Part shown: in pieces, positions 20,837-64,000 of the stretch
How positions within the stretch are numbered: the first letter of the stretch is position 1
Layout of the letters: every line of letters begins with the position of its first letter
IMG/VR virus record: IMGVR_UViG_3300036795_000241
Span: 1 to 64,000 of that record
Length of the DNA: 64,000 bases
Source: a virus
Strand: one strand, 5' to 3'
Notes under the pieces: model-generated
What the model was told of the DNA's origin: nothing
The model's database searches: none
The model's input: only the letters and a program-made list of their open reading frames with translations
Made by a program: the position numbers and the translations under genes

Positions 20837-20865
20837 TTGACAGCCGCGGCAGTTGCTGCTAGACT
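20837..20865 (+). promoter_or_regulatory. Housekeeping-sigma promoter
   Basis: TTGACA-17-TAGACT. Confidence 0.8.
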
Positions 20866-20899
20866 GGTTGCTGTAGGGCAAGATGTGAGAGGAGATGCA

Positions 20900-31124: not shown

Positions 31125-31153
31125 TTGACATCCGCGAAGAACTCTGCTAGACT
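31125..31153 (+). promoter_or_regulatory. Housekeeping-sigma promoter
   Basis: TTGACA-17-TAGACT. Confidence 0.8.
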
Positions 31154-31183
31154 GTAGCTGGATGGGGAGAGAGGAGGTACCCG

Positions 31184-38991: not shown

Positions 38992-39020
38992 TTGACAAAC
39001 CGGAGCATCTCTGCTATACT
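38992..39020 (+). promoter_or_regulatory. Housekeeping-sigma promoter
   Basis: TTGACA-17-TATACT. Confidence 0.8.
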
Positions 39021-39252
39021 ACTGGATGAGAGGAGGTTGACGAGATGGCCCCAGTAAAACCGATTCAGATCAAAGATATCGACGAAACGTCCAAGCGGGT
39101 GCGCGCGGAACTGCGTACCTGCATCGATGCGCATATCCGGGGCGATAACGTGTCGGCTTACGCAGCTGCGGAACGCGCTCAGCACATTTGCTTCGAGCTC
39201 AAAGAGCTCTTCATGCAGCCGCTGAGTATCCGAGGAAGGAAACCGAGTCCGA

Positions 39253-47857: not shown

Positions 47858-48415
47858 ATGCCTGTTTCGACTTCCGCTCCCGAAGCTAAGCTCGGCTGGC
47901 TAAAGCCGGCGGACGTGATCGTATGTCGCACTGGCGGAATCGAAGCCGAGTTCATTCGCTTCGGTGCCGAACTCATCGACAAGCCGAACCTCGACAATCA
48001 CGTCGTGGTGGTCGATCACATCGATGCGGCCGGTACCGTGTGGGGTATCGAAGGTCGCCCCGGCGGCGTCGGATGGGTCGACTGTGCGAAGTACTTCGGT
48101 AACGGATACGCGCTCACGAATCGGCGCCAACCGAAGTCCGATGAACAGCGAGCTCACGTTACCGGAACGATGAAGAAGCTAGTCGGTACCGGTTACGACT
48201 GGCGCGCAATTATCGAGGATTGCGGTGACGACCTGCACATTCCCGATCCGTGGCGGGAGAAGTGGAACGGACTCGTACCGGGTCACGTGGTGTGCAGCTC
48301 CGGAGCCATCATCGGTTACTACGGTTCCGGCTTGCTTTATCCGACTGATATCGACATGGCGCATATCCAGCCCGCCGACTGGACCGCGTTCATTCTGCAG
48401 CACAGCTACGAATAG
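47858..48415 (+). CDS. Permuted papain-like (NlpC/P60, YiiX-type) protein
   Basis: PAD, NH, IEG.PGGV, G..YDW and VCSS in that order, i.e. His before Cys. Confidence 0.7.
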   Translation: MPVSTSAPEAKLGWLKPADVIVCRTGGIEAEFIRFGAELIDKPNLDNHVVVVDHIDAAGTVWGIEGRPGGVGWVDCAKYFGNGYALTNRRQPKSDEQRAHVTGTMKKLVGTGYDWRAIIEDCGDDLHIPDPWREKWNGLVPGHVVCSSGAIIGYYGSGLLYPTDIDMAHIQPADWTAFILQHSYE

Positions 48416-48424
48416 GAAGTAACG

Positions 48425-49570
48425 ATGGAAACCGCTCTCGCCGCCATATCCGCACTCTTCGTCCTGCTTACCGCGCTCTGCCTGTGGCTCATCCGCCAAG
48501 TGTGGCTACTGCGGTACCGTACGCCCGGTAAGCACGCTGTCGCTGTCGAGGTTAAGCCGGCACCGACCAACGATGAGCCGGACGTCAAGGACGCGCTGAT
48601 CGCTAAGCTCGAAGCGGACCTTCGTGACGCACGTAACGAAAGCCTCGCAATGGTTGGCGATCTAAGGCGACAGCTGGCCGAAGCGGACGCCAATGCGACG
48701 TTGCGGATTCAGCGTTCCGAAGCACTGGCGGAACGCCAGGCGGGTGAGCGGATTGCCGCGATTAGACAAGAATACACGGAGAGGCGACGAGCGGAGAATA
48801 AAGCGTCTAACGCTCGCTCACGTACCGCACTGGTTGCGAAAATCGGCGAGCACCTTGCACCGCTTTTCGAAGGCTTCAAGTATAACTTGAAAGATGTAAG
48901 ACACGTAGGCGAGATATTCGATTTCCTTGTCTTTGATGGACTCGAGGAAGGCGAAATTCGTCAGGTGGTCTTTCTCGAGGTAAAGACAAAGCGAAGTGGC
49001 GCACGAGTTACGAACCCGCGTGAGAAGATGCTACGGGATGCCGTTGAAAATGGTCGTGTGTCCTACGATATCTACGTACCGCCGGTTAATGGAAGCTTAG
49101 TTATGCGAACATGTAGCGTAGTACTTCCGGGCGGAGCGGACTGCCCCAAAAAGCATTACGCGCTAGGTTTCTGTCGTCCGCACTACTACCGAAAAAGGCG
49201 GTACGGAGATCCGGGCTTTATTCCGGATATCACGCAGGACGGTAATCCGAACTGGAGCGAAGTACCGGGATACCGCGCAAAGCACGGACGTGTGCGCAGA
49301 GCTTACGGAAAGGCTAGCGAATACGAATGCGAAAACTGCGAAAAGCAAGCTAGCGACTGGGCGATGCTGCATGATACGAACGGAGAAGATATCGATGACT
49401 TTATCCCGCTGTGTCGAAGCTGTCACTGCCTCTACGACGATATCGGAAGACACTGGCGCGTAAAGTCGCCACCGCATTGCTCAACGTGTACTTGCAGCAT
49501 AAACGGAGGAACTAATGGCCGACCCCGCCGGCGAAGCGTTCGCCCGGACGGTGACTCCACCGCAGATTGA
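48425..49570 (+). CDS. TM + coiled coil + Holliday-junction-resolvase-like endonuclease, fused to an HNH-type domain
   Basis: EHLAP, DFLVFDG and FLEVKT; then C..C, GFC.PHY, CENC and PLCRSCH. Confidence 0.75.
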   Translation: METALAAISALFVLLTALCLWLIRQVWLLRYRTPGKHAVAVEVKPAPTNDEPDVKDALIAKLEADLRDARNESLAMVGDLRRQLAEADANATLRIQRSEALAERQAGERIAAIRQEYTERRRAENKASNARSRTALVAKIGEHLAPLFEGFKYNLKDVRHVGEIFDFLVFDGLEEGEIRQVVFLEVKTKRSGARVTNPREKMLRDAVENGRVSYDIYVPPVNGSLVMRTCSVVLPGGADCPKKHYALGFCRPHYYRKRRYGDPGFIPDITQDGNPNWSEVPGYRAKHGRVRRAYGKASEYECENCEKQASDWAMLHDTNGEDIDDFIPLCRSCHCLYDDIGRHWRVKSPPHCSTCTCSINGGTNGRPRRRSVRPDGDSTAD

Positions 49571-49771
49571 CATTCCCAGTGTCCGGCCAGACGAAAACCT
49601 ATCGCCGCGGGAGCTTCTCGAAAGGGCGGTCTTCGAATCGCTCGGTCGCGCCTCGGTGTGCTGGGAGGACTTCCCGTCCGGGGTGTTCCTCGCGGAGCAG
49701 GCGAAGGCGGTTGGCGAAAACTTGCTCGAATGCATTGACGCGTTCGTGCAGCACAAACTTCAGGGTAGCGG

Positions 49772-49801
49772 TTGACAGTTTGCGACTGGCTATGCTATAC
49801 T
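49772..49801 (+). promoter_or_regulatory. Promoter of the SSB-like gene
   Basis: TTGACA-18-TATACT. Confidence 0.8.
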
Positions 49802-49859
49802 GGAGGTTCAATTAGAGGCCGATCGCGCCTCAAAGCGATCACGTAGAAAGGACAGGCAG

Positions 49860-50264
49860 ATGCCCGTTCAGGTAGACCTCACCGGCGTTTCCGTTGAAGG
49901 CCCCACTCCGCTGGAGCCGGACACGTATGACGCAGTTATCACGAAGGCGGACATTCATCCGTCCAAGTCCTCGCAGAACGACACGCTGTACCTCGAGATA
50001 GCGGTCGGTGAGGAAGGGCGCAATCTCCGCTGGAACTGCTCCGTGGCGGGGGACTCGCTGTGGCGCTTCAAGAAGCTGCTGGTGCGACTCGGATTCGAAA
50101 TCCCGGAAGGGCCCTTCGAGTTCGACGAGAAGGAACTGATCGGCGCCGAATGCCAGGTCAAGGTCAGCCTCGAGCCGCACTACCAGGACCCGTCCCGCAA
50201 GACGAACAAGATCACCGCCGTTCTCGGCCCGGACGGCGAAGAAGGTGAGGGTTCCTGGGGCTAG
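49860..50264 (+). CDS. Phage single-stranded DNA-binding protein (DUF669-like)
   Basis: PLEPDTYDAVI, SKSS and ELIG..C.V.V; acidic tail; own promoter. Confidence 0.75.
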   Translation: MPVQVDLTGVSVEGPTPLEPDTYDAVITKADIHPSKSSQNDTLYLEIAVGEEGRNLRWNCSVAGDSLWRFKKLLVRLGFEIPEGPFEFDEKELIGAECQVKVSLEPHYQDPSRKTNKITAVLGPDGEEGEGSWG

Positions 50265-50265
50265 C

Positions 50266-50343
50266 TTAGCTTCCCGCCGAAAGGCGGGGAGGCTGGGGGC
50301 GGGCCGGCACCTCCTCTCACAAGTTGCGAGTCGGTCCGCCTCC
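50266..50343 (+). terminator. Tandem hairpins after the SSB gene; the second displays an anti-RBS loop
   Basis: GAAA-capped stem 50266-50296; 14-bp stem 50295-50308/50330-50343. Confidence 0.7.
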
Positions 50344-50368
50344 TTCCTAATGGCGTAAAGGAGTACCG

Positions 50369-50914
50369 TTGCTGTATGTCGGAATAGACCCGGGGTCGAT
50401 TTACACTGGGATCGCCGTATACAACGGTACCGAATTCACGCTATGGTGCGAGACAAGTGATCCAACGGCTATCTTCGATTTTATCGATGATCTCCGCGCA
50501 GTTGAACCGATACACGTAGTGCTCGAAATAATGACGGGTGGCGGCGTCCGCGACAAGCACATTGTCCGCACCATCGAAGTCGTTGGCTACGTGTATCACG
50601 GGTGCCGGGAACGCGATGTCCCGATAACCCGAGTCCCGCAGCAGTTGCGGCTATCCGCGGTGTCGCAATTGCCGGACGCGATAAAGGGAAAGGACGAACG
50701 GTCAGCAGCGGCACACGCAATGGCGTTTGCCGAACGGACGGAGAGAAAGAATGCTCGAGCAAGCCAGCATCGAGGTGCGCCACCACTTCGAGGCCGCACA
50801 CCGGCTGTTCCTGACGTCGGGAAAGTGCGAAAATATCCACGGACACAGCTGGAAAGTCGCACTAGAGTTGACCGGTCTGGTCGACTCCGCCAACGGAATG
50901 GTCGGCGCACTTGA
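50369..50914 (+). CDS. RuvC-like Holliday junction resolvase
   Basis: VGIDPG..TGIA, VVLE and DERSA motifs; the 3' extension overlaps queD. Confidence 0.75.
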   Translation: MLYVGIDPGSIYTGIAVYNGTEFTLWCETSDPTAIFDFIDDLRAVEPIHVVLEIMTGGGVRDKHIVRTIEVVGYVYHGCRERDVPITRVPQQLRLSAVSQLPDAIKGKDERSAAAHAMAFAERTERKNARASQHRGAPPLRGRTPAVPDVGKVRKYPRTQLESRTRVDRSGRLRQRNGRRT

Positions 50915-51251
50915 CTTCAGCGACGTAAAGGGTTCGTTCCGTACGTATCTCGATAACGAGTTCGACCACCGATTGCTACTGCACCGCGAAGACCCATTCG
51001 CCGGTCCACTGATCCACAGCTTCGAACACGATCTGGTCTCCGCAAAGCCGGACACGGGAAAGCTCGATTCACTCCCCGGTGTCTCGTGCTTCGATTACGA
51101 CCCGACCACCGAGAACGTCGCACGGACGATCGGCGTCTGGGCCAGTGACGAGTTCGGGATGAATGCCGCACTTAGCGCGGTCCGCGTAACGGTTCACGAG
51201 ACGGACGTAAATTCCGCGACGTGGATGACGGCACTTACAGGAGAAATGTAG
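50751..51251 (+). CDS. queD: 6-carboxytetrahydropterin synthase
   Basis: FEAAHRL, CENIHGHSW, FDH, PTTENVA and VHET motifs. Confidence 0.93.
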   Translation: MLEQASIEVRHHFEAAHRLFLTSGKCENIHGHSWKVALELTGLVDSANGMVGALDFSDVKGSFRTYLDNEFDHRLLLHREDPFAGPLIHSFEHDLVSAKPDTGKLDSLPGVSCFDYDPTTENVARTIGVWASDEFGMNAALSAVRVTVHETDVNSATWMTALTGEM

Positions 51252-52025
51252 ATGACAACTGAGGCTCCGGCCCGAGATTGGCTGCTGGTATCCGAGCAGT
51301 TCCTCTCGCACCAGGGCGAAGGGCCGTCAACCGGGCGGCTCGCGAAATTCCTTCGCCTCGGCGGATGCAACCAAGCGTGCCACTGGTGCGATACGCCATA
51401 CTCGTGGGTCTATGACGATCGACACGTCGCACTTCACGATAGCGGGAAGAAGTACAATCCCGCGGAGGAGCTCAAGCGGCATCAGATCGGCGAGATCACG
51501 GAATGGCTAGCCACGCCGCCATTCGCACCGCTATGCGTGATCACTGGCGGTGAGCCGATGCTCCAGCGCGATCAGCTCGAACGAATGATCAGCGCCGCGA
51601 ACGAGGAGCTCAACTACCGCTTCGAAATCGAAACCGCGGGAACGATTCATCCCGGTCCGTTGCTGCTGTTCCAGAACGTTGACTACAACGTGTCCCCGAA
51701 GCTGGCGTCCAGTGGCAATCCGTATAAGCTACGGTATCAGCCCGAGGTGCTCCGCGCGTTCGCCGAATCGTGGGCCACGTTCAAGTTCGTGGTCGATACC
51801 CGCAAAGGGATGACCGCGGAAGTGCGTGACGATATCTCGGAGATCCGGCGAATCATCCGCGACTGCGAAATCCCGCCGCGTAACGTCTGGCTAATGCCGT
51901 GCGGAACGATATCGCGGGAAGTGGTCGACGGGATGCGCGTCCTTGCCCCAGTGGCTGCCGAGTCCGGGTGGAACGTGAGCACGCGACTGCACATTCTTGC
52001 CTACGAGAACCAGCGGGGGATCTGA
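51252..52025 (+). CDS. queE: 7-carboxy-7-deazaguanine synthase (radical SAM)
   Basis: QGEG, FLRLGGCNQACHWCDT, ITGGEP, IETAG and VSPK motifs. Confidence 0.95.
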   Translation: MTTEAPARDWLLVSEQFLSHQGEGPSTGRLAKFLRLGGCNQACHWCDTPYSWVYDDRHVALHDSGKKYNPAEELKRHQIGEITEWLATPPFAPLCVITGGEPMLQRDQLERMISAANEELNYRFEIETAGTIHPGPLLLFQNVDYNVSPKLASSGNPYKLRYQPEVLRAFAESWATFKFVVDTRKGMTAEVRDDISEIRRIIRDCEIPPRNVWLMPCGTISREVVDGMRVLAPVAAESGWNVSTRLHILAYENQRGI

Positions 52026-52603
52026 TGCTCGATAAGAACGTCGCCGAAATGGAATCGGCTGTCGGCTGGCTTCTCGATCAGCTCGGTTACGACCGAACGA
52101 CCCAGCACTTCACCCGCACGCCGCAACGCGTAGCGAGAATGCTTTCCGAGTACGCGAAGAACGGTAGCGCGGATCGGGTGCGTGAGCTGCTCGGCGTTAC
52201 GTTCATCGAACCCGGTGCGGTCTCGTCACTGGTCCTCGAAGGTCCGGTGGACTACGTCTCGATGTGCGCGCACCACATGCTCCCCGTAACCGGTACCGCC
52301 TGGATCGGTTATCTCCCCGCAAAGGCGGTATGCGGACTCTCGAAACTGGCGCGCGTGGTCGATCACTATGCGCATCAGCTAGGCGTACAGGAAGTGATCA
52401 CGCAGCAGATAGCGGATGCACTGGTGGAACACCTCGAACCGATGGGCGCAATGGTCGTGGTCCGGGCACAGCACGGCTGCATGTCCACCCGTGGCGTAAG
52501 GCAGCCGCAAGCGTTTACGACCACTTCGGCGGTCCGCGGCGCGTTTAAGGAAAGTGCGGCCGCCCGCAACGAGTTCCTCCAGCTGATGCAAACGAAGGGC
52601 TAA
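52025..52603 (+). CDS. folE: GTP cyclohydrolase I
   Basis: TP.RVA, SMCAHHMLP, GLSKLAR, QE and HGCM..RGV motifs. Confidence 0.95.
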   Translation: MLDKNVAEMESAVGWLLDQLGYDRTTQHFTRTPQRVARMLSEYAKNGSADRVRELLGVTFIEPGAVSSLVLEGPVDYVSMCAHHMLPVTGTAWIGYLPAKAVCGLSKLARVVDHYAHQLGVQEVITQQIADALVEHLEPMGAMVVVRAQHGCMSTRGVRQPQAFTTTSAVRGAFKESAAARNEFLQLMQTKG

Positions 52604-52609
52604 GGTAGC

Positions 52610-53428
52610 GTGAAGCTTGCGCACATCGTGCCAATCACGATGCTTACTGCGGTCCCGCGAACCGCGTCGGCGCACCTAACGATTACGAATCTCGTGCTTA
52701 GCTGTCCGCGCTATCAGCGATTCTATCGTAAGCGAGCGCACGCGGGTGACCTAGTCATTCTCGACAATCCCGTCCACGAGAATCAGCCAATCGATATCGG
52801 TAGCTGGCTCGAGGCAATCTCGATGCTCGAACCGACGGTGGCGATTGTCCCGGACGTAATTGACGATATCCCGATGACGGTAAACCTCGCGCGGCACGCG
52901 GCGGGAATCGTATCCTCGCGGAAAGCAATCCTCCCGCAACCGGAGCTAATGGCGGTTCCGCATGGTCACACGCATGAAGAGTTCTACCAGTGCGCCGCTG
53001 AGCTGATCAAGATTCCCGGGATAACGTGGCTCGGGATTACCCTGGAACGGCGATTGAACGATGATCAACTCGCGCTAAAGCGTAGGCGTGAACGGCTGCG
53101 GATGCTCTCGTACGACCCGCTATTCTCGGGTACGAAGATCCACCTTCTCGGCGTTTCCGAGACCGCGGAGGAGCTCGGTGACGATTCCGTATGGGAACGC
53201 GCGGTCAGCTGCGACACTTCGAAGTTCGCCGTATGGGCGCTTACCCGCAATCCGGTTGCGCCACCGGTTCCGCTTAGCACACCGTATCCCGGTCGCGAGA
53301 TATTCGGCGGGAGCTACAATTACTACTGGGCGCACGGTTTGTCGTGGCCGGACCGGCGAAAGTTCACGCAGAATCTCGCCGAATGGTCGCGCTATGCCCA
53401 GCGATACGACAGGAGCACGAACGAGTAA
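52610..53428 (+). CDS. TGT-like TIM-barrel protein, candidate DNA 7-deazaguanine transglycosylase (divergent DpdA)
   Basis: ILDN, VPDV, MAVPHG, IHLLG and SCDTS mirror TGT/DpdA motifs; embedded between folE and queC. Confidence 0.7.
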   Translation: MKLAHIVPITMLTAVPRTASAHLTITNLVLSCPRYQRFYRKRAHAGDLVILDNPVHENQPIDIGSWLEAISMLEPTVAIVPDVIDDIPMTVNLARHAAGIVSSRKAILPQPELMAVPHGHTHEEFYQCAAELIKIPGITWLGITLERRLNDDQLALKRRRERLRMLSYDPLFSGTKIHLLGVSETAEELGDDSVWERAVSCDTSKFAVWALTRNPVAPPVPLSTPYPGREIFGGSYNYYWAHGLSWPDRRKFTQNLAEWSRYAQRYDRSTNE

Positions 53429-54780
53429 TGTCTGGAATCTTTGCGGCGATGGTGCATAGCCAGAGCGTGCCCTCGGCGCCACTTGAGCGGCTGGTCAAGG
53501 GTTCGCAGAAGCGCGGTAACGATGGCGTTAGTGTCGTAACGCTTAATCGGTCGTTTAGCCGCGTTTCGCGGAATCGCACATGGTACGACGTTAACGCGAA
53601 AACGGGCCGCGGAGTATTCCCGCCGGGCGTGTATGGCGTTCTCGGGTGTGCGTATTCCCGTCCCGCCGCGGGTGACCACGTTGCGCCGCCGTTCATCAAT
53701 CGCGCTAGCTCGTGGTGCGTAACGGTCGATGGGGCAATTACGAACTGGTACGGACAGCAGCTTGCCGAACGGCTCCTCGTTGACGAGTACGAGGACTGGA
53801 CCGAATTCGTCGAGGACCTCGAAGGTCAGTTCGCGATTGTCGCGATGCATCGTGACGACCCACGTACGCTGTATTACGGCTGCAAGGCTAAGCCGCTCTA
53901 CATGCTTTACGACCCGATCATGCACGCCGTTTACATCGCACAGCAGCCGGAGTACTTCTACGGGATGTACGATGAGTCGCGGACTCCCCGTCCAGTGCGG
54001 CTGGGCCCGTATTCCTGCGGCGAAATCGCAGCCGATGGAAAGGTCCGTCCGGCGCATCCGTTGCGACACCGTTACGGCTCCGGTTCGCTGATGCTTTGCG
54101 GTGGCGGTCTCGACAGCACCGTAGCCGCGTGGGATAATGCGCAAACGTATGCCGATGACACGCTGCTAATGTACGTCGATTACGGAGCGCGGGCGCGCGT
54201 GAAGGAGTGGCACGCGACGCAGTCACTGGCGGCCGCAATGGCCAGCCCGCACAGCGGATTGGTCGGCTCCACTGAAGCGGTAAAGGTGCCCTTCGATTTC
54301 TTTCGTAAGCATGTCGCCTCGCCACTGTTTCCGGGTGGCAAACCGGTATCTGAGCACCCTCAGCCCGGACAGGCTACGGAGTGGGTACCGGCACGGAATA
54401 CCGTACTAATGGCACTGGCGGTGTCGTTTGCTGAATCTAACGGTCTGGCGCGGATCGTGACCGGGATCAATATGGAAGCGGCTGCCGCGTATCCGGATAA
54501 CGAAGAAGAATGGCACCGTCGCTGGGAGCAGCTGCTACCGTATGCGGTAGGCGATGGCGCACAGATCGACCTGGAATCACCGCTTCGCGGTATGTCGAAA
54601 GCGGACATCGTAAGGCTCGGTGAGACGCTAAAGGTACCGTGGGGCACGGTCGATAGCTGGTCCTGCTATAACGGCGGGAAGAATCACTGTGGCCAGTGCT
54701 CCAGCTGCCGAGCTCGTCGTGGCGCATTCGTCCGCGCGCAGATTCCGGACGTTACGCGATACACCAGGGAGCCGAAATGA
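53428..54780 (+). CDS. queC: Gat-QueC fusion with a degenerate class II glutamine amidotransferase domain
   Basis: N-terminal MSGIF, EGQFA; QueC part GGGLDS, DYG, VPARN, YPD and SCY..HCGQCSSC..R. Confidence 0.9.
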   Translation: MSGIFAAMVHSQSVPSAPLERLVKGSQKRGNDGVSVVTLNRSFSRVSRNRTWYDVNAKTGRGVFPPGVYGVLGCAYSRPAAGDHVAPPFINRASSWCVTVDGAITNWYGQQLAERLLVDEYEDWTEFVEDLEGQFAIVAMHRDDPRTLYYGCKAKPLYMLYDPIMHAVYIAQQPEYFYGMYDESRTPRPVRLGPYSCGEIAADGKVRPAHPLRHRYGSGSLMLCGGGLDSTVAAWDNAQTYADDTLLMYVDYGARARVKEWHATQSLAAAMASPHSGLVGSTEAVKVPFDFFRKHVASPLFPGGKPVSEHPQPGQATEWVPARNTVLMALAVSFAESNGLARIVTGINMEAAAAYPDNEEEWHRRWEQLLPYAVGDGAQIDLESPLRGMSKADIVRLGETLKVPWGTVDSWSCYNGGKNHCGQCSSCRARRGAFVRAQIPDVTRYTREPK

Positions 54781-55359
54781 CCGAACCGCCGCCGATGAGC
54801 CAAGAGTCCGCTCAGCGAGTACAGGAGGTAATGAAAGAGGTCATTCAAACGAACGACGCAATGCCCGGGAAGTACGTTATCTTCGTTACCGCGGATGTCG
54901 TACCGGACGACCCGCAGGCGATTGTCGAATGGGAATGGTACTGGCGTCCGATAAATCGACATGCAGGCGGCGGTTAATGCAAGCGGAACTGGTCCCGGTA
55001 ATCGTACGCGTTCAATTCACGTGCGGGAATCACCTGACGCCACTCAAGCCGAATCTTATGCGACTTGAGTACCGATGTCCAATGCGCGGTTGCGACACAC
55101 TGCTACGAAAGGAAGAACTGCACCGCTGGAACTTGCACTTTACGAACGCCTTTCCCGAGGTAATCGTCACTGGACGGAAGGAGACGTTATGCCGCTCGGA
55201 ATCTGCCAGCCGTGTCAGGACGGAGCGACCGAGATGCTACTGGGCAATACCGAATTCGCTACCCGCCTGCACGAGCAGTGCCCCGGCGGTACGTGGTGTC
55301 TATGCCACCATAGCGTAAGTGGCTCCGCGATGTCGGAGCAGGATCAGCTACGACGCAAC

Positions 55360-55388
55360 TTGACAATCCGGGATACCCCGGCTATACT
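55360..55388 (+). promoter_or_regulatory. Promoter of the NDT-polymerase operon
   Basis: TTGACA-17-TATACT. Confidence 0.8.
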
Positions 55389-55397
55389 TGAGGAACC

Positions 55398-55763
55398 ATG
55401 ACCACGGAGCGCATTTACATCTCGCACCACACGGAGAAGCTGCTCATTCCGTTCAAGCAGCAGCTCGAAGCACTCGGCTACGAAGTGACCAGCAACTTCG
55501 ACAGCGAAGATCTGGTCGAGCACGTTAGCGACATTCGCGAAAGCGATGTCTTCGTGCTGTTCTTGGTCGGGCACGGTGCCCAGCTCAATCGTACCGTCGA
55601 ATTCGGTATCGCAATCGGTCTCGAGAAGGTGCTCGTGTGCATCGGTGACGCCTACGAGAAGGACTACCCCGGACGGTCGTTCGTGAATCACTACCGCACC
55701 ACCGAGCAGTTCCTCGCGGCATGGCGTACCGGTGAGCCGGAGTCGGGACTGGTCAGTGCGTAA
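55398..55763 (+). CDS. Nucleoside 2-deoxyribosyltransferase-like protein
   Basis: IYIS, DIRESD and VEFGIAIGL.K motifs; own promoter; coupled to the polymerase. Confidence 0.65.
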   Translation: MTTERIYISHHTEKLLIPFKQQLEALGYEVTSNFDSEDLVEHVSDIRESDVFVLFLVGHGAQLNRTVEFGIAIGLEKVLVCIGDAYEKDYPGRSFVNHYRTTEQFLAAWRTGEPESGLVSA

Positions 55764-58290
55764 ACGCGCTACCGCAGCATCCTGCGCGGACTGCCCCGAG
55801 GAGGGACCTGTCTGCGTTGGCGGATTCGGACCGGAGAAAGCGCGGCTGGTCATTGTCGGTGAGGCACCGGGTCACGACGAGTGCCTCACCGGCCGTCCGT
55901 TCATCGGGAAAAGCGGTCAGCTGCTTAACGCCACGCTGCAGAGCTACGGGATTAAGCGAACCGAGTGCTTCGCCACTAACTCCGTAATGTGCGCCGTTAA
56001 GCCGGGAACGCGGCACCATAACGCCTGCTGGTCGCGGTTGAAGTCCGAGATCCTTTCGCGCGAGCCCGAGATCGTGTTGACACTGGGCAAGGCCGCCTTT
56101 TCGGCGGTATGTCGCACTCGCACGCCACTATCGAAGACCGATGGAACGTTGTGGTGGCAACCGGATTTCGGCGTGTACGTAATGCCGACGTGGCATCCCG
56201 CTGCCGTACTTCGCGGTGGCGCCGATGACAAGTTCTTCCCGATGATCTCGAATGCGATATGGCGCATTTCCCGGCTACTGGACGGACGGGATAAGTTCCC
56301 CGATCCGAATGGTCAGCCGGGATACAAGTGGACGTTCTTCCGCACCGCCGAAGGAACGATTCGGTGTGCGAAGTACTACCTGCGGAAAGCCGATTCCTCG
56401 CCAGTGCCATACGTGATCTCGGTCGACACCGAATCGCGGTCCCCGGGTAAGCGTCCGCATCCGGAGCAGGACCTATGGCTCATGCTGCAGTTCTACGATG
56501 GCGATCGTGCCGCGGCAATCGACATGATCACGAATCAGACGCCAGAATCGTTGCGCTGGCTAATGAAGCTAATCCGGCATCCGAATGTCGAATGGGTCGG
56601 ACATAACATTGCGACATACGACACCCGGGTGTTCCGGCATAACCTCGGGAAAGGCGTGCGGGATAGTAGTATCCGCGACACGCTGATCTACGGACTCGGA
56701 TTGAGTGAGCGCGCCAACGCGGTTGGCTTGGAGCCACTGGCCCGAACGTGGCTAGGTGCCCCCGCGTACAAGCGCGGTCTCGCTGAATCGGGCTATCGGC
56801 ACGCGAAGGGTCCGCAGAACGAGCTGCAGTGGAAGCAGCTGGCGAAGTATGGCGTGGACGATGTCTATAACACGTACGAGCTCAACCGTATTCTGCCTAC
56901 GCTGGTCCGCGATGAGGGTACCGAAGATCTCGTCAACAATATCATCTTGCCGCTAGCACTTACGTGCGGTAAGCTAAGCGGACGCGGGTTCCCGATTGAC
57001 CTCGAGCAAGGAAAGCGACTCGAGGAGCTTTGGGGCGGACGCGTTGACGATACGGTTCATCGGCTACAGGAGCTAGCGATAAGCTCCGGGTGGCCAAAGG
57101 ATCCGAATAACGCTAAGGCGAAAGACGGTCGACTCAACCCGCGAAGCCATTTGCAACTGGCGCATTTCGCTCTCGACTGCCTCGGTCTTGCGCCGACCGA
57201 TGGCGCGACAAACCGTAAATATAGCGGAACCGCGAAGAATCTGCACGGTCGCTCGCGGTCAATTGACGCCGACTTTCTCGTCGGACATCAGGACACCGAA
57301 TTCGGACAGCTGATGACGCTGCTGCGGGTATACGATAAGCAAGTGCGCACGTATGTCCGCGGTATTCTGAAAGAGCTCGACCCCGATGGCTTGATTCACC
57401 CGTCATTCGATATTGCGGGTACCGCGACCGGGCGCCTCGTGATTAAGCCGCTGCTGCAGGTGCTCCCGCACTATGGTGCGCATGCGCAACTCGAGGAAGA
57501 GGACATCGCAAAGGAAGTGCGGAGGCTATTCCCCGCGCGCAAGGGCTATGTCATCGTTACGGCGGACTACAAGCAGCTGGAGTTCCGGGTCGCGTGGATG
57601 CTGTCCGGGGACCAGAAACTGGGCCATGCCCTTACCTCCGGTGATATGCACGCGAAAACGGCTGCGTACATGTTTAAGCGTGACGAAAGCATCGTGACCA
57701 AGGCCGACCGGCATGCGGCCAAGCGGGTGTCCTTCGGTACCGCATACTGGCGCTCCGCGTACACACTGGCGAAGGGTCCCCTGCTCGAGGTGCTCGGTGG
57801 GATTACGATACCCGAAGGCGTGCGAATCGCCCGAGCGCAGCGGTTCATCGACGACTTCCGGGCGCTGTATTCCGATTACTATGCGTGGCAGCTGGAATCG
57901 GCGGATAGTGCCGTGCGTAACGGTGAACTGTCCACGGTATTCGGTCGCAAACGTCGCTGGCCACTGATCACGCACGACAACCGCGAAGAGATCCGCCGGC
58001 AAGGCGTGAACTATCCGATCCAGTCCACCGCCAGTGATATGTGCTCCAGTGCCCTCGTTCGACTAGCCGATGTGCTGCCGAAACGCAAGCTCGGATTCCC
58101 GCTATACACCGTGCATGACGAGGTCGTTAGCGAGATCCGCGAAGACCGCCTTGACGAAGGAATTGCCGCGATCGCGGAGGTGATGTCGAACCCAGCTATC
58201 GACACTAACGGGGCCGTGTTTCCCGTGGACGCTTCGTACGGTCCGAATCTCGGCGATCTTACGGGATACCAAATAAAGGTAGCAGCGTGA
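55756..58290 (+). CDS. Family A DNA polymerase with N-terminal family-4 uracil-DNA-glycosylase and 3'-5' exonuclease domains
   Basis: UDG: CADCP, VGEAPG..E...G.PF.G.SG, WHPA. Exonuclease: DTE, HN...YD, Y..DD. Polymerase: TGRL, ADYKQLEFR, R..AK...FG..Y, VHDE. Confidence 0.95.
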   Translation: MRKRATAASCADCPEEGPVCVGGFGPEKARLVIVGEAPGHDECLTGRPFIGKSGQLLNATLQSYGIKRTECFATNSVMCAVKPGTRHHNACWSRLKSEILSREPEIVLTLGKAAFSAVCRTRTPLSKTDGTLWWQPDFGVYVMPTWHPAAVLRGGADDKFFPMISNAIWRISRLLDGRDKFPDPNGQPGYKWTFFRTAEGTIRCAKYYLRKADSSPVPYVISVDTESRSPGKRPHPEQDLWLMLQFYDGDRAAAIDMITNQTPESLRWLMKLIRHPNVEWVGHNIATYDTRVFRHNLGKGVRDSSIRDTLIYGLGLSERANAVGLEPLARTWLGAPAYKRGLAESGYRHAKGPQNELQWKQLAKYGVDDVYNTYELNRILPTLVRDEGTEDLVNNIILPLALTCGKLSGRGFPIDLEQGKRLEELWGGRVDDTVHRLQELAISSGWPKDPNNAKAKDGRLNPRSHLQLAHFALDCLGLAPTDGATNRKYSGTAKNLHGRSRSIDADFLVGHQDTEFGQLMTLLRVYDKQVRTYVRGILKELDPDGLIHPSFDIAGTATGRLVIKPLLQVLPHYGAHAQLEEEDIAKEVRRLFPARKGYVIVTADYKQLEFRVAWMLSGDQKLGHALTSGDMHAKTAAYMFKRDESIVTKADRHAAKRVSFGTAYWRSAYTLAKGPLLEVLGGITIPEGVRIARAQRFIDDFRALYSDYYAWQLESADSAVRNGELSTVFGRKRRWPLITHDNREEIRRQGVNYPIQSTASDMCSSALVRLADVLPKRKLGFPLYTVHDEVVSEIREDRLDEGIAAIAEVMSNPAIDTNGAVFPVDASYGPNLGDLTGYQIKVAA

Positions 58291-58895
58291 TTATCTCGCC
58301 ACTGAAGCTCGTAATCAGTGCGCTGGCGGCCATTACCGCCGCAATTGTCGGAAGCTTTTTCGGGGATCAAGGAACACTAATCGGTGTCGCCACCGGCAGC
58401 GTTGTCTCGGGTGCCGCCGCGGGAGTATATGAGCATGTCGCCTCGAAAACGAAAGGAGTGATCAAGTTTGCCCCGCAGTACCGAAAGCTGCCACTGGCTG
58501 AACGACAGAAGTTGCTAAAGCGAATCGCAATTGCGTCCGGGGCCAGTGTCCTCGCTATCGGAACCGTTTCCGCCGCCGTAGTCGTCATCCCCGAGTTGGC
58601 CAGTGGGCGGACGCTACATAGCCTGACCACGGGAAAGGTGGACTACGGATCATCGTTCGGGAGCAGTTCGACGGTATCTCCGGCCCCAGTGCCAACGATC
58701 CGGTACACCCCGAGCGCAACGCCAAGCGTTACCGGAGGTACGCAATCAGCAGTACCGACAAGCCCAGTGACGCCTTCGCCGAGCTTCTCCGCGACATCCC
58801 CTTCGTCCGTGTCGCCGACCTCGGCCCCGCCGATTATACCTTCGTCCCTCTCGTCGCCACAAGCGACACCACTGGAAGGAACGCCGACCCCATGA
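58287..58895 (+). CDS. Membrane protein with a Ser/Thr/Pro-rich tail
   Basis: Hydrophobic segments followed by an S/T/P low-complexity C-terminus. Confidence 0.7.
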   Translation: MIISPLKLVISALAAITAAIVGSFFGDQGTLIGVATGSVVSGAAAGVYEHVASKTKGVIKFAPQYRKLPLAERQKLLKRIAIASGASVLAIGTVSAAVVVIPELASGRTLHSLTTGKVDYGSSFGSSSTVSPAPVPTIRYTPSATPSVTGGTQSAVPTSPVTPSPSFSATSPSSVSPTSAPPIIPSSLSSPQATPLEGTPTP

Positions 58896-59479
58896 TCGAC
58901 ACAGTTGAACTCGAGATCCCGGTTCATCTGGCCCCGGCAATAGCGATTCTCGTTAAGACCGCCGTGCAGAAAGGAAGCGACTACGCACGTGACGAGTGGA
59001 GCAGCAACTTCTCCGATACCGCCGACCACTTCGGCATCCCGCGTTACGAATCGTGCGACTTCAACGAGATTCAGAAGCTCGCACGGCTGAAGAGCCTTCG
59101 TACCGGCCGAAAGGTGCTCAACGAGTCCGTCGAAGACACGTACCGGGACAAGGCGCTTTACGCCATTCTCGCATACGTGCTGTATCTCGAAGAAGTGGCA
59201 GCTAGGCGCGGGGCCGAGAACGAAGAGAAGATGAGTGGCTTCCTCTATACCGAGGCGCCAAGCGAGTCCGTACTGGACGGGGAGCTCCCGTCCCGCGCGC
59301 AGGTGTCCACGCATATGCCGATCGAAGGTGACGGGGTCGACGCCTGGCTTCAGCGGATTCGTGGCGACTTCGATACCGATTCACCGCAGTACGCGCTGCT
59401 TACCGAGATGATGGCGAAGTATCAGCGGCGTGCGGAGGAGGGTAAGTCCCTTTCGGAACCGGTTATATATCCGACTTGA
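58892..59479 (+). CDS. Nucleotide-modification-associated domain protein (Nmad1/DUF1599-like)
   Basis: K..DY..NF..K..R..ES..D...D...YA.L pattern. Confidence 0.65.
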   Translation: MIDTVELEIPVHLAPAIAILVKTAVQKGSDYARDEWSSNFSDTADHFGIPRYESCDFNEIQKLARLKSLRTGRKVLNESVEDTYRDKALYAILAYVLYLEEVAARRGAENEEKMSGFLYTEAPSESVLDGELPSRAQVSTHMPIEGDGVDAWLQRIRGDFDTDSPQYALLTEMMAKYQRRAEEGKSLSEPVIYPT

Positions 59480-59505
59480 CAGGACCCGCGCCGGTGTGCT
59501 AGACT
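59476..59505 (+). promoter_or_regulatory. Housekeeping-sigma promoter
   Basis: TTGACA-18-TAGACT. Confidence 0.8.
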
Positions 59506-59522
59506 GGATGCTGTGAGAGGAG

Positions 59523-60251
59523 GTGGTCAAGGTGGCCGCAGATAACGCACTTGACCGCATTCAGAAGCTCCTGGCGAAGGCAGAGAGCCCCGCAGTTACG
59601 GAGCAAGAGGCCGAGTCCTTTCGGGACAAGGCCTTTGAGCTGGCTGCGAAGTACCGGATTGACCACGCTGAGCTTAAGGCGAAGGGCCAGGCGCCCTCGG
59701 AGAAGATCGTGAACCGGCGAATGCACGTGTCCCGCCCGTTTACGCAGATGATGCGCCTGGCCCTTATCGTGTTCGAGTCGAACGATTGTTCGCTCATCCG
59801 CATCAGCGGGACCAAGGACACGATACACGCATTCGGATACGAGAACGACATGGCGAAGGCCGAATTGCTGTTCACCTCGTTGCTGGTGCAGGGTGCCCGG
59901 TGGTGCGCACAGGACTACCGCGAGTACCGGTACGAAAGCGAGGAGCGGCGTTCGACATTCCGGCGAGGGTGGTGGACCGGATATGCGAACAAAGTGTACA
60001 AGCGACTGCAGGCAATTCAGCAGCGTGCGGAGAGCGAATCCGCCACACCCGGGACGGCAATCGTTCTGCGGGACCGCAAGCAGGACACGAATACCGCGAT
60101 GGTCAACCACTACTCCGGAGCGATCAGCCGCGGTCGGCGGACTAAGGGCGTGTCCAGTCACGGTGGATACCGAAGGGGATCGGAAGCCGGTGACCGGGCC
60201 GACCTGGGTGGGACGCGGATGGGGCCCTCCGCCCGCGGTGAGCTGGGCTGA
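59523..60251 (+). CDS. DUF2786 family protein
   Basis: RIQKLLAKAE..EA....KA..L..KY.ID N-terminus; own promoter. Confidence 0.85.
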   Translation: MVKVAADNALDRIQKLLAKAESPAVTEQEAESFRDKAFELAAKYRIDHAELKAKGQAPSEKIVNRRMHVSRPFTQMMRLALIVFESNDCSLIRISGTKDTIHAFGYENDMAKAELLFTSLLVQGARWCAQDYREYRYESEERRSTFRRGWWTGYANKVYKRLQAIQQRAESESATPGTAIVLRDRKQDTNTAMVNHYSGAISRGRRTKGVSSHGGYRRGSEAGDRADLGGTRMGPSARGELG

Positions 60252-60259
60252 TACCCCGC

Positions 60260-60288
60260 TTGACAGTCGCGGGAGGATCTGCTATACT
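60260..60288 (+). promoter_or_regulatory. Housekeeping-sigma promoter
   Basis: TTGACA-17-TATACT. Confidence 0.8.
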
Positions 60289-60749
60289 GGGTCCTGTGAG
60301 AGGAGCAGGGTCAGCCAGGGTGGCAGGACCCAACCGCGACATGGCAACAGTTCTCGGGACCAGGAACGCCGATGGAAGCGTCCAGATCGAGCGCGTGCTC
60401 ACCCCGACCGAGGTCAAGAGCCGGCGGGGAAGTGTGAGCGAGAAGCGCGTTACCAGGTACCAGCAGGGCCGTGGCCGTCGGACCCGGAGCGTGTACCAGG
60501 CAAGGGCACTGGGTTCCGGTCAGGGAGTGCTAGCCGCTCAGGACGCCGTGTTCACCGACAGCCCGCAGATCGACGAGTACCGGAGCGGGTTCCGGACCGC
60601 ATGAGCGAATACCACGAGGTGCCCGGCACATTCCGATGTGCCGGGTGCGGGCGGGAGCACGCCAGCCACACCCCGCCGGTACAGATTGACTTCGAGCTTT
60701 ACGCACCCGAGTGCGTTCCTGACAACTCCACCGCGACGGAGGGATAGCA

Positions 60750-61139
60750 ATGGCACGAAGGACGGTTGTGCGCCGAAAGGCCACCGGAAGCGTTACCGCA
60801 CGGACCGCGGCCAGGCGCGCGGCGCGGAGACAGACCGAAACGATCCAGGTCCGCGCGGCCCGGCGGGTTGGCGGTGATGAGCCGGAAAGCGTTACGCAGG
60901 CCCGCACGTGGGACCGCAAGTACCGCCGGTATCTCGTGGCCGGGCTGTGCCACCCGTGCGCCGCAAAGGCATCGTGGGGCCATTCGCTCGGATTCCAGAA
61001 GATCGATGACCCGTGCGCCAAGTGCCAGCCGATCGTGAACCAGTTCGCGACCCCCGGCCCCGAGGGTTCGAAGTGGCGTAAGGTCCTCGACAAGCTCGAG
61101 CGAAGCGTTACCCGTGAAGAGATGGAGGCGCTGCTTTGA
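60750..61139 (+). CDS. Basic Cys-containing hypothetical protein
   Basis: GGAGG RBS; CHPC and CAKC. Confidence 0.6.
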   Translation: MARRTVVRRKATGSVTARTAARRAARRQTETIQVRAARRVGGDEPESVTQARTWDRKYRRYLVAGLCHPCAAKASWGHSLGFQKIDDPCAKCQPIVNQFATPGPEGSKWRKVLDKLERSVTREEMEALL

Positions 61140-61842
61140 AGCTCGCAGAACCGGCGGGTAAGCGCGGTGACCGAGTGCGTAACGTGCATAGCAATCGCAC
61201 GGCAACCGTGGAGCGCGTATCCGCGAACACGACATTCGTTATCTACGATGACGAACCCGGCGTAGAATACGGCGGAACGCATAGTGCGTTTGAACCGCTT
61301 TCGCCGAAGTAGGAGGAGCCGCACCGCGCCCCGGTCCGCCGGGGCTTCCGGTGTCTCCGAAGGTAACGGGCTACACCCCGCCGCGCTACCTACGCGAAAC
61401 ACGTCGCCCGATCCGTGTCCGAAGTGCGGTGCACTGGCGAACGAGCCATGCACGTACACGCAGGACCGCACGCAGATTCACCGCGATCCCGCCACGTGGG
61501 ATTACGTGTGGAACGAGGGCGGTAAGCCGATGCAAATCATGCACCACGAACGACGGAGGAAAGCTATGACCGGATGCCCCGACCCGACGCCACGCCCGGA
61601 GGACGGACAGACGTACACCGATTATGTCCTTCGCACGACCGGGAAGCCGGCGGACGCGGATCTCGTTACGCCGCCGAACGACTCGGAAACGACAACGCGA
61701 CAGAAGGACAGCATCGCACACCAGCTAGTCGAACTCAGTTTCGACCCGCCGGCGTGGTTCGTAGCTAGCGCGTACCTGTCCGACCTAAAGGCGCTGCTCC
61801 GTTACGTCCAGCGGGCTCACCTGCGCAAGGAGGCAGCGGAGA

Positions 61843-62334
61843 ATGCTCGATAGCCGCGATCCCGCCTGGATCTTCGACATCGATGGCACGCTAGCGCATA
61901 ACCGCAGCGGACGTAACATCGTCGACTATACACGCGTTAGCGAGGACGAGCCCGACGAAGCGGTGTTCCGGATCTGCCAAGCCCTCGTCGACAAAGGCGA
62001 CACCGCGCTGTTCGTTACCGGTCGTGAGGACACGGAGCAGTGTCGACGCGATACCGAGCAGTTCCTGTACCTGAACCTCGACGTATTCGCGCTCGATCTC
62101 AGTCCGTATCTCTATATGCGCCCGGCAACCGAAAAGGATCGCTTCCGTAAAGGCGCCGAGCTCAAGCTCGAGATCTACCGCACGCAGATCGAACCGAAGT
62201 ACCGCGTTTTCGGCGTATTCGAAGATCTACCTACCGTGGTACACATGTGGCGCGAAGAGGCCGGGCTGTCCGTCTTCCAGTGCGCCTCAGTTCCTGAGCT
62301 CACTCCGGAGGAGGCGGCTAAGCGTGGACGATAG
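61843..62334 (+). CDS. HAD phosphatase (PNKP 3'-phosphatase-like)
   Basis: FDIDGTLA, VTGR, LYMRP, K and FED motifs. Confidence 0.85.
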   Translation: MLDSRDPAWIFDIDGTLAHNRSGRNIVDYTRVSEDEPDEAVFRICQALVDKGDTALFVTGREDTEQCRRDTEQFLYLNLDVFALDLSPYLYMRPATEKDRFRKGAELKLEIYRTQIEPKYRVFGVFEDLPTVVHMWREEAGLSVFQCASVPELTPEEAAKRGR

Positions 62335-62555
62335 CACATTCGGCGAATACGTACCGGGAAAAGGCGGCGGCTCGATTTCGTACAACGTGCAAGGGCTCCC
62401 CGACGGTCTCCCAGCCGGTACCTATGCGACCCGGGTGCTCAACGCACGATGGGTCGTGCGACGCGACGGCGTTCTCGACTGGGTTGTCGAGATGGAATTT
62501 GTCGGACCGGCAAAAGATGACGAGCCGTGTCTGTTTCCCTTGATCAAGACCGACG

Positions 62556-62680
62556 TGTCCGGAGGGAGTGATCATGGTGAGTGATGGCCATTCCACCAGG
62601 TTCTCATTTTAACCCGGCCTAGGGCATCCCAGGACCGGATGGCTATGTAGTATGCTGGCCCTGGGATGCCCATTTGACCC
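62556..62680 (-). repeat. Conserved 125-nt hairpin element, copy 2
   Basis: Inverted homologue of 40191-40316, at the point where + and - strand genes converge. Confidence 0.8.
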
Positions 62681-62682
62681 GG

Positions 62683-62895
62683 TTAGCCCTGGCCGGCCCA
62701 CTTCGTTAGCGGACCGCCGTTACCTGGTTCGCCTTCGCGCCAGCCGTGCCACCGGTCGCGCTCCACCGTTACGCCATTGAACGCATCGAGGCACGCGGTG
62801 AGAAAGCTAGCGAGGACGAAGTCGGGCGTATCGGATACGTTCTCGACGCTGTGCTTGTTGATGAGCTCCTCGAGCTCCTGCTTAAACGTCGCCAT
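62683..62895 (-). CDS. Small conserved phage protein
   Basis: LIN.HS.EN.SDTPDFVLA motif. Confidence 0.7.
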   Translation of the reverse strand: MATFKQELEELINKHSVENVSDTPDFVLASFLTACLDAFNGVTVERDRWHGWREGEPGNGGPLTKWAGQG

Positions 62896-63167
62896 CAGTA
62901 CGACAACGTTCCGTAGGTGACGACACTGCTCGCCGTATTAGCGGTCGAGATTCGAATACCGGATCCCGCCATGATCACGAGAGCGGTAATCGCGAGCAGG
63001 CTAAACGCGCCCTGCAGTAGCCCATTGAACCGATTCGGGCGCGCGTAAATCGGCGTGCGGTGCAGCGGGCGGTATCGCTTGGACTTCGTCTCGTCGCGAG
63101 TTCCGTAAAGGAAGATCGCACTTCCGATAGCGATGACGATTCCGCAGAGGGTCCAATATAGTGGCAT
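62895..63167 (-). CDS. Small membrane protein
   Basis: Two hydrophobic segments; GGAGG RBS. Confidence 0.6.
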   Translation of the reverse strand: MPLYWTLCGIVIAIGSAIFLYGTRDETKSKRYRPLHRTPIYARPNRFNGLLQGAFSLLAITALVIMAGSGIRISTANTASSVVTYGTLSY

Positions 63168-63178
63168 CGAACCCTCCC

Positions 63179-63817
63179 TTAGCAGCCGTCATACGGGGAC
63201 CAGTTGAACTGTCCGCCGCGCGCCATCGCGTTGGCGAACACCTGGTTCTGCTCCGCCGCGCTGGCGTGTCCGAAGTCGGCACCGTTACCGCCGTAAACGA
63301 CCCACGTGGAGTAGCTGAACTGGTATAGCCCGTAGTGACCGGTGGAGTTCATCACCTGCGTATTCCCGCCGGATTCCCGTGCGATAACGCAGGCCTGGAA
63401 GCCGCTGTAGTTACTCGGGTTCACGGTAGCCGCCGGAGCCTGAATCGCTTTCGCAACGGGCGCCGGTACGGGAGCGGGAGCCTTCGGCATCGAGGTAACC
63501 GTTCCGGTAAGGGACAGTGCCGTACCGGGATAGATCAGATTCGGGTTCGCGATCTTCGCCTGGTTGAGCGCCCACAGGTACTGCCACTTCGCCGAGCTGC
63601 CGAGCTGGTTCTGTGCAATTCTGCTCAGCGTGTCACCGCTTCGGATGACGTAGTTTGTCGCACTGGCTAGCTGCGTTGCGAAGTGTCGTATCGGGTGAGT
63701 CGGAGTCGTGTAATTCGCGGGAATCGCTTGGACGGTCGTGCTCCCAGTGAGTGCGAACGGAAGGAGCACGTTAGCCAGCGTGATTGCGGCTACGGCCATT
63801 AGGTAGAGCTTACGCAC
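63179..63817 (-). CDS. Secreted LysM + Rpf-like lytic transglycosylase
   Basis: Signal peptide; YVIRSGDTLSRIA..NPNLIYPG LysM; C..RESGGN..YGLYQF..TW..EQ..W..C Rpf-like domain. Confidence 0.88.
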   Translation of the reverse strand: MRKLYLMAVAAITLANVLLPFALTGSTTVQAIPANYTTPTHPIRHFATQLASATNYVIRSGDTLSRIAQNQLGSSAKWQYLWALNQAKIANPNLIYPGTALSLTGTVTSMPKAPAPVPAPVAKAIQAPAATVNPSNYSGFQACVIARESGGNTQVMNSTGHYGLYQFSYSTWVVYGGNGADFGHASAAEQNQVFANAMARGGQFNWSPYDGC

Positions 63818-64000
63818 GATGCTAACCTTCTGTGTGTGATGTCGCCCTAACGAAAGGGTAGCTTATGCTTCGGGGTCACGGAAGCTAAGCGTACCCGAGG
63901 GCACTGGACGAGGAGATGCTACGGGTTGAGGTGATAACCGATCGGGGCTGCGCCAGTGTCGGTACGGTGCAGCACCACGCTGTTAACGTCCTGCTTCGAT

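Follow-up and report, generated by a model that had tools for sequence, protein, structure and literature searches.

A conserved hairpin within a soil-phage operon carries a loop complementary to the ribosome-binding leaders of the phage's own genes

Between the genes for an SSB-like protein and a RuvC-like resolvase in an uncultured soil phage lies a large hairpin, whose loop reads as the complement of ribosome-binding leaders found 9-32 kb away on their own promoters. This raises the question of whether the match is fortuitous and, if it is not, what a loop of this kind might do. The window, the whole stretch of DNA analyzed here, runs from base 1 to base 64000 of one phage contig (denoted G000), which is 75,683 bp long and has a G+C content of 59.6%. 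A collection of cultured phages returned no blastn match to this genome, and tblastn identity in that collection did not exceed 34% for the SSB-like protein and 27% for the DNA polymerase.

Near-consensus promoters of the form TTGACA-N17/18-TAnACT, at least 22 in number, are distributed between positions 18528 and 60288, all of them on the + strand, and an extended form, ctgcTAGACTGGtGCTGTG, is common to many. In at least five cases (25206, 28557, 33676, 38547, and 55360) an ATG follows 6-9 nt past the -10 element; the mRNAs made from these promoters are probably leaderless, a predicted property that hints at an actinobacterial-type host. The SSB-like gene (49860-50264, + strand, 134 aa) is served by a promoter at 49772-49801 (TTGACA-N18-TATACT, + strand), which agrees with the consensus at 11 of 12 positions. 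The protein has 50 homologues and matches PHROG 3724 (E = 7e-11), while the name "SSB-like" depends on a weak match to the SSB family PHROG 378 (E = 1.5e-4). The leader of this gene (49802-49859) has a hairpin of its own, GAGGCCGATCGCGCCTC, and homologous promoter-plus-hairpin leaders stand ahead of the SSB-like gene in two of the related phages introduced below (G001 and G004).

Downstream lies the RuvC-like open reading frame (50369-50914, + strand; PHROG 159 and 1770), the 3' end of which overlaps the start of queD. Its first stop codon is at 50914, giving a 164-nt overlap with queD (ATG at 50751), and its final ~55 residues, rich in arginine, resemble out-of-frame queD. A 7-deazaguanine/queuosine gene set (queD, queE, folE-like, and GAT-QueC-like) follows at 50751-54780 within the same read-through unit. 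The next promoter-like site on the + strand after 49772 is at 54110, with none in between, so that the 49772 promoter serves the SSB-like gene, both of the hairpins that follow it and, by read-through, the RuvC and queuosine genes. Genes in the 48000-64000 interval end with hairpins that lack U tracts; U-tract terminator-like sites are absent from the + strand of this interval, and the four terminator-like sites present, all on the minus strand, compare with 12.5 expected from shuffled sequence. Because no promoter dedicated to RuvC, queD, queE, and folE lies ahead of 54110, transcription must cross both hairpins, which makes the hairpin of interest an operon-internal element and not a plain 3'UTR. 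An earlier sequence-only reading of the locus had described it as the source of a 3'UTR-derived small RNA; the plain 3'UTR of that description is not supported, and a discrete sRNA is accordingly an assumption.

Directly after the SSB-like stop codon comes a first hairpin (50270-50291, + strand) with a 9-bp stem, a GAAA loop, and no U tract. It is followed by the second, conserved hairpin (50295-50343, + strand), in which, according to the RNAfold centroid structure, a 14-bp stem (50295-50308 with 50330-50343) encloses a loop of 21 nt. The surrounding 101 nt (50262-50362) fold to -50.5 kcal/mol on the + strand (z = -2.62) and less well on the minus strand (-39.4, z = -0.85), and each of the three non-Watson-Crick pairs in the stem is a G-U pair on the + strand; fold and strand comparison thus agree with the earlier description of a 14-bp stem whose G-U pairs fix the + strand. 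The stem arms are rich in GGAGG/CCUCC. The candidate anti-tag CACCUCCUCUCACA (50308-50321, + strand) is mostly unpaired, with an unpaired probability of 0.5-0.99 for 50309-50321, while C50308 belongs to the closing base pair of the stem and stands outside the loop. Compared with an intrinsic terminator, the hairpin has the GC-rich stem, but its loop is 21 nt rather than short and the sequence 3' of the stem, TTCCTAATGG, contains no U tract. A cmscan search of 49700-50500 against Rfam, with E-values up to 10, gave only three chance matches to eukaryotic lncRNAs. A sub-threshold Rfam match to HOXB13-AS1_2 inside the SSB-like coding sequence (50034-50109; 26.8 bits against a gathering score of 40) was taken as chance.

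The sequence CACCTCCTCTCACA (50308-50321) is the exact complement, over 14 nt, of positions 59512-59525. The tag at that site, TGTGAGAGGAGGTG, stands together with its promoter (59476-59525, + strand) in the leader of a DUF2786/DUF7168 gene and forms a predicted duplex of -29 to -32 kcal/mol with the loop. Five further + strand leaders carry shorter versions behind their promoters: 18528-18574 (tag at 18562-18574, 13 nt; 67-aa gene, PHROG 1933), 20837-20898 (20884-20894, 11 nt; 213-aa gene, PHROG 636), 60260-60305 (60295-60305, 11 nt; 94-aa gene), and, with partial tags, 38992-39037 (39027-39037, 11 nt; 84-aa gene) and 31125-31178 (31169-31178, 10 nt; 63-aa gene). All six matches quoted by the sequence-only reading are therefore real, and each falls in a leader that follows a consensus promoter, 4-18 nt past TTGACA-N17/18-TAnACT and 4-14 nt ahead of the start codon. 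The tag would accordingly make up roughly the first 12-14 nt of the predicted mRNA, Shine-Dalgarno (SD) site included. Two details needed adjustment: the match at 20884-20898 is exact over 11 nt (20884-20894), the quoted 14 of 15 being reached only when three stem bases are counted, and the DUF2786 gene more likely starts at the GTG at 59532 than at the GTG within the motif.

The same reading held that a CUCACA extension of the loop goes beyond generic anti-SD pairing, which is correct in part. The sequence GAGAGGAGGTG is common directly after promoters in unrelated phages, and only ~3 nt (UGU) are private to this phage; in one unrelated IMG/VR phage (L196) the post-promoter sequence is GTGAGAGGAGGTGAT, and the gcTGTG portion of the tag belongs to an extended promoter/start region shared with other promoters. 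Pattern scans of IMG/VR for a promoter followed by the tag recovered only contigs of the G001 type, described below, and unrelated phages with generic SD sites. By its sequence, then, the G000 tag appears largely close to a generic strong or extended SD site, and the loop appears to resemble the anti-SD core of the ribosome (CCUCC) with a few bases added; the complementarity in G000 could partly follow from the SD/anti-SD resemblance of the two partners. At 20884, however, the complete UGUGAGAGGAG, UGUG included, recurs 18 nt past the -10 element and away from the transcription start, so that the tag behaves as a unit and not merely as start-site sequence beside an SD site.

Counted genome-wide, as the earlier reading had proposed, TGTGAGAGGAGG occurs five times with at most one mismatch, against 0.14 expected, and the only minus-strand copy of the tag within one mismatch in the 75.7-kb genome is at 50310-50321. 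When the loop was shuffled with its composition preserved, none of 5000 shuffles reached a 14-nt match against the 23 leaders, while 2 of 300 reached such a match anywhere in the genome. On the + strand, the loop forms its strongest predicted duplexes with the leaders at 59.5, 18.5, and 20.9 kb (-32.1, -27.9, and -27.6 kcal/mol, respectively); the genome-wide mean is -9.1 with a standard deviation of 3.2, which places the best partner at z = -7.2. The reverse search, from the 23 leaders to antisense sequence anywhere in the genome, returned this loop at the top, with matches of 14 and 13 nt where the background did not exceed 12 nt. Pairing in cis, with the SD site of RuvC or that of the SSB-like gene itself, was considered and rejected, neither being among the top duplexes. 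Since the G000 case was selected from a very large scan, its statistics alone prove little, and only the related phage G001 provides an unbiased test.

Protein-guided searches identified five further lineages with DNA: G001 (a 23.4-kb fragment with identical copies in several samples and ~60% protein identity to G000), G003 (a 14.7-kb fragment), G004 (73.7 kb, complete), G005 (72.5 kb), and L036 (a 2.2-kb metagenome contig that holds no leaders). The order SSB-like gene, large hairpin, RuvC is kept in all six lineages, G000 included, and the loop is unusually large in every one of them (17-37 nt). Over G000, G001, L036, and G003, 96.7% of the aligned stem cells are paired and four pairs have changed on both sides; the non-Watson-Crick pairs counted in this comparison, four in number, are without exception G-U on the + strand. 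Judged by this alignment, the hairpin is a conserved, selected + strand RNA structure.

The loops of G001 and G000 can be aligned through a CU tract, CTCAC, GTTG, and the 3' arm, and they read CCUUCCCUCAC in G001 vs. CCUCCUCUCAC in G000. The exact complement of the G001 loop, GTGAGGGAAGGA, is found once on the + strand of the G001 contig, 8 kb downstream of the hairpin, where it lies 5 nt past TTGACT-N17-TAGACT and 6 nt ahead of a GTG start codon. The leader tag is GUGAGGGAAGG in G001 vs. GUGAGAGGAGG in G000, and between the two lineages loop and leader differ by two compensatory double changes, from C-G to U-A and from U-A to C-G. The loop/leader co-variation that the earlier reading had suggested looking for in relatives is thus present in G001. 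Among possible duplex partners of the G001 loop, this leader ranks first (-35.9, z = -5.8); conversely, the G001 leaders have this loop as their top genome-wide antisense match, and none of 5000 loop shuffles reached the observed match. In both lineages the match includes the non-SD bases GUGAG, and the tagged genes of one lineage are not orthologs of those in the other. The evidence for co-variation comes from these two lineages; taken with the shuffles, it indicates that the loop-to-leader complementarity is not due to chance, and the case appears to have unusually good comparative support for purely computational work.

The pattern TGAG[AG]G[AG]AGG is found in G000 and G001 in + strand leaders and once on the minus strand, in the loop, and it is absent from either strand of G003, G004, and G005, whose loops have no outstanding partners in their own genomes. 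Each of these genomes thus has both tag and anti-tag or neither. As these three lineages keep the hairpin without an anti-leader loop, its basic role is something else, for instance that of a terminator or stabilizer. In the L036 loop the CU tract takes a third form, CCUUCCCUCGGGG, from which it is predicted that a leader tag in that lineage would end in CCGAGGGAAGG. The G001 hairpin (3491-3556) has two features of its own: its 5' arm contains GGGAAGGA, identical over 8 nt to the core of the leader tag, so that the CU tract of the loop could pair with its own 5' arm in an alternative structure, and its loop contains an additional mini-hairpin (AUGCUG-CGAGA-CAGCAU), also present in L036.

We give a probability of about 0.5 to the reading in which the operon-embedded loop acts as an antisense element in trans, pairing over the 5' end and SD site of the tagged mRNAs of the phage and so reducing their translation. 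The conserved hairpin inside the SSB-like/RuvC operon would expose an open, pyrimidine-rich loop, this loop would base-pair with the extreme 5' end and SD site of the six tagged promoter-proximal mRNAs of G000, and the pairing would compete with the 30S subunit and so reduce translation. The loop may be seen as an anti-SD core (CCUCC) that has been lengthened and adapted to the leaders of this phage, forming Watson-Crick pairs at positions where the pairing of an ordinary anti-SD tail would wobble or end, and it could for this reason out-compete the ribosome specifically on tagged leaders. An accessible seed that is complementary to the ribosome-binding site of its targets and co-varies with it, as expected of an sRNA-type regulator, is present. 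On this reading the RNA would accumulate, either processed or embedded in the mRNA, it would pair in vivo, and the effect would be repressive. A consideration against pairing in trans is that a helix of 13-14 bp in a closed 21-nt loop would be topologically strained unless the stem opens. As to timing, silencing had been proposed to set in once replication genes are on, a proposal that finds no support in the promoter of the hairpin (49772), which is of the same class as those of its targets; because regulator and targets share one promoter class, the arrangement reads as a dosage brake and not as a timed early shut-off.

A simpler account, which we regard as unlikely though with an appreciable chance of being right, is that the hairpin is only a terminator, attenuator, or barrier to 3' exonucleases, keeping SSB-like expression high and RuvC expression low, that its loop does nothing in trans, and that the leader match arises from CU- and SD-rich composition together with SD/anti-SD resemblance. 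The persistence of the hairpin in lineages without an anti-leader loop, the U tract (CTTTTT) added in the G004 homologue, the GGAGG/CCUCC-rich stem arms, and the generic nature of GAGAGGAGGTG after promoters are all in keeping with it. Composition, however, does not reproduce the observed matches in shuffles of either genome, nor does this account deal with the GUGAG bases inside the match in both lineages or the two compensatory double changes between them; loops of 17-37 nt are atypical of terminators, and the G000 hairpin lacks a U tract and precedes genes that need read-through. A terminator or stabilizer is probably what the hairpin was ancestrally, a role that leaves the loop unexplained. 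Complementarity and co-variation would apply equally if the interaction ran in the opposite direction, with tagged 5' leaders or abortive RNAs binding the loop, opening or stabilizing the hairpin, and thereby tuning read-through into, or translation of, the RuvC/queuosine genes. The read-through needed by these genes and the position of the hairpin, which ends 14-25 nt ahead of the RuvC SD site in every lineage (and 25 nt ahead of the RuvC-like start in G000), would suit such a scheme, but there is no evident logic to such a many-to-one arrangement, the RuvC SD site is not a pairing partner of the loop, and invading a 14-bp GC stem from its loop would be energetically costly. We consider this scheme improbable.

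About as poor are the prospects of an explanation at the level of DNA, in which the 12-14-bp motif would be a double-stranded site, similar to an operator or stoperator, for a phage or host protein, with one inverted copy between the SSB-like and RuvC genes. The location of the motif at +1 to +14 of promoters would be natural for such a site, and a change in protein specificity would likewise make all copies co-vary. What it fails to predict is the placement of the inverted copy, which in both lineages falls precisely within the open loop of a conserved RNA hairpin, a setting for which a DNA site has no need; the motif is, moreover, asymmetric and overlaps the SD site, and its sole reverse copy is away from promoters. 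It is very improbable, finally, that the loop serves a minus-strand gene as its ribosome-binding site or is left over from an inverted promoter-leader cassette, a possibility that the earlier reading had named as one that would undo its proposal. The minus strand does read TGTGAGAGGAGGTG, an SD site followed by GTG, but the flanking genes are on the + strand, and no such gene or promoter relic accounts for the sequence: the frame begun by this GTG runs for only 14 codons in G000 and for ~34 codons, unrelated to those, in G001; similarity to the promoter cassette stops at 12-14 nt, and the minus strand has no -35/-10 elements ahead of it.

Pairing of the loop with tagged leaders, the reading we prefer, would have several counterparts. 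Phage T4 encodes a nuclease, RegB, and a repressor, RegA, that act on the SD regions of its own early mRNAs; the likeness lies in a phage factor directed at the SD regions of a set of its own messages, and the difference in that these factors are proteins and not RNA. In Staphylococcus aureus, an anti-SD-like UCCCC in the 3'UTR of icaR mRNA reportedly pairs with the SD region without any separate sRNA gene. There the partner is the SD of the same mRNA, whereas the leader of the SSB-like gene is a poor partner for the loop described here. The 6C sRNA of Actinobacteria is reported to be chaperone-independent and to bind several mRNAs through C-rich hairpin loops (PMC6486639). It differs in being a host-encoded stand-alone gene with C-rich loops, whereas the G000 loop combines an anti-SD sequence with a private extension and has no Rfam match.

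Among phage RNAs, the closest precedent is c4, made by P1 and P7: its loops carry sequences that pair around the ribosome-binding site of ant, block its translation, and underlie heteroimmunity (PMC12197685; Citron and Schuster 1990 as summarized there). It is made from the phage's own operon transcript, and the changes in the RNA that distinguish P1 from P7 are matched by changes in the target (PMC12197685). The hairpin described here likewise has a loop that is complementary to ribosome-binding sites of phage mRNAs and co-varies with them between related phages. Nevertheless, the G000 hairpin has no sequence or structure match to the c4 covariance model (RF01695), and c4 acts on one target region in its own operon (ant/icd) in the service of immunity, in contrast to at least six dispersed promoter-proximal leaders here, which are putative targets on promoters of their own 9-32 kb away and not on the same transcript. 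The view that the G000 hairpin is a phage antisense RNA acting on ribosome-binding sites, a variation on a known mechanism, is partly supported.

A second parallel comes from Cluster K mycobacteriophages, in which SAS, an asymmetric 13-nt tag with an SD core, stands a few nucleotides ahead of many non-structural start codons in one orientation (PMC3203893). A single copy in the opposite orientation lies away from gene starts, and the authors of that work allow for an RNA or a protein partner (PMC3203893). The earlier reading knew of no description of such a circuit; c4 and this reverse SAS copy are precedents for it. The G000 tag is likewise asymmetric, has an SD core, and belongs to non-structural genes, with six + strand copies 4-14 nt before start codons between 18.5 and 60.3 kb and a single reverse copy (50310-50321) that is not at a gene start. 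The motifs themselves differ (GGGATAGGAGCCC for SAS vs. TGTGAGAGGAGG here), SAS is not tied to promoters, and it has at least 16 copies vs. six here.

In Mycobacterium phage Anaya (JF704106), SAS occurs 16 times on the + strand and once in reverse (record positions 59870-59882). The reverse copy falls in a non-coding gap of 385 nt close to the right end of the genome, and we found that the + strand there reads CCUCCUAUCCC in the 11-nt loop of a two-tier hairpin (59844-59904). This hairpin is conserved in CrimD, Niklas, and Amelie, with each stem change keeping the pairing, and its loop has diverged in Amgine, Ekdilam, and Keshu. Co-variation of SAS and loop is not demonstrable in Cluster K, since in Amgine the SAS consensus is retained while the loop has diverged. 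By analogy, a reverse SAS copy in a hairpin loop is the same design, here in cultured phages.

It is possible, though we put it forward tentatively, that operon-embedded hairpins with loops that mimic the anti-SD sequence and add a few private bases form a widespread, unrecognized class of phage riboregulators, each with its own tagged regulon, and that the class has arisen repeatedly, in this soil phage group and, through the reverse SAS copy, in Cluster K1. If the pairing is functional, a single short loop of RNA would govern how an entire group of phage genes is translated, by way of a private tag in their leaders. The antisense RNAs c4 and sar have one target each, and this would be their counterpart on the scale of a regulon. 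The natural loop/tag pairs of G000 and G001 would be ready-made orthogonal pairs and could serve as compact parts for translational control. Functional pairing would also point to a definite partner for SAS, a motif of Cluster K mycobacteriophages that has long lacked an explanation, and since these phages are cultured and genetically tractable, with M. smegmatis as host, the idea would be directly testable there.
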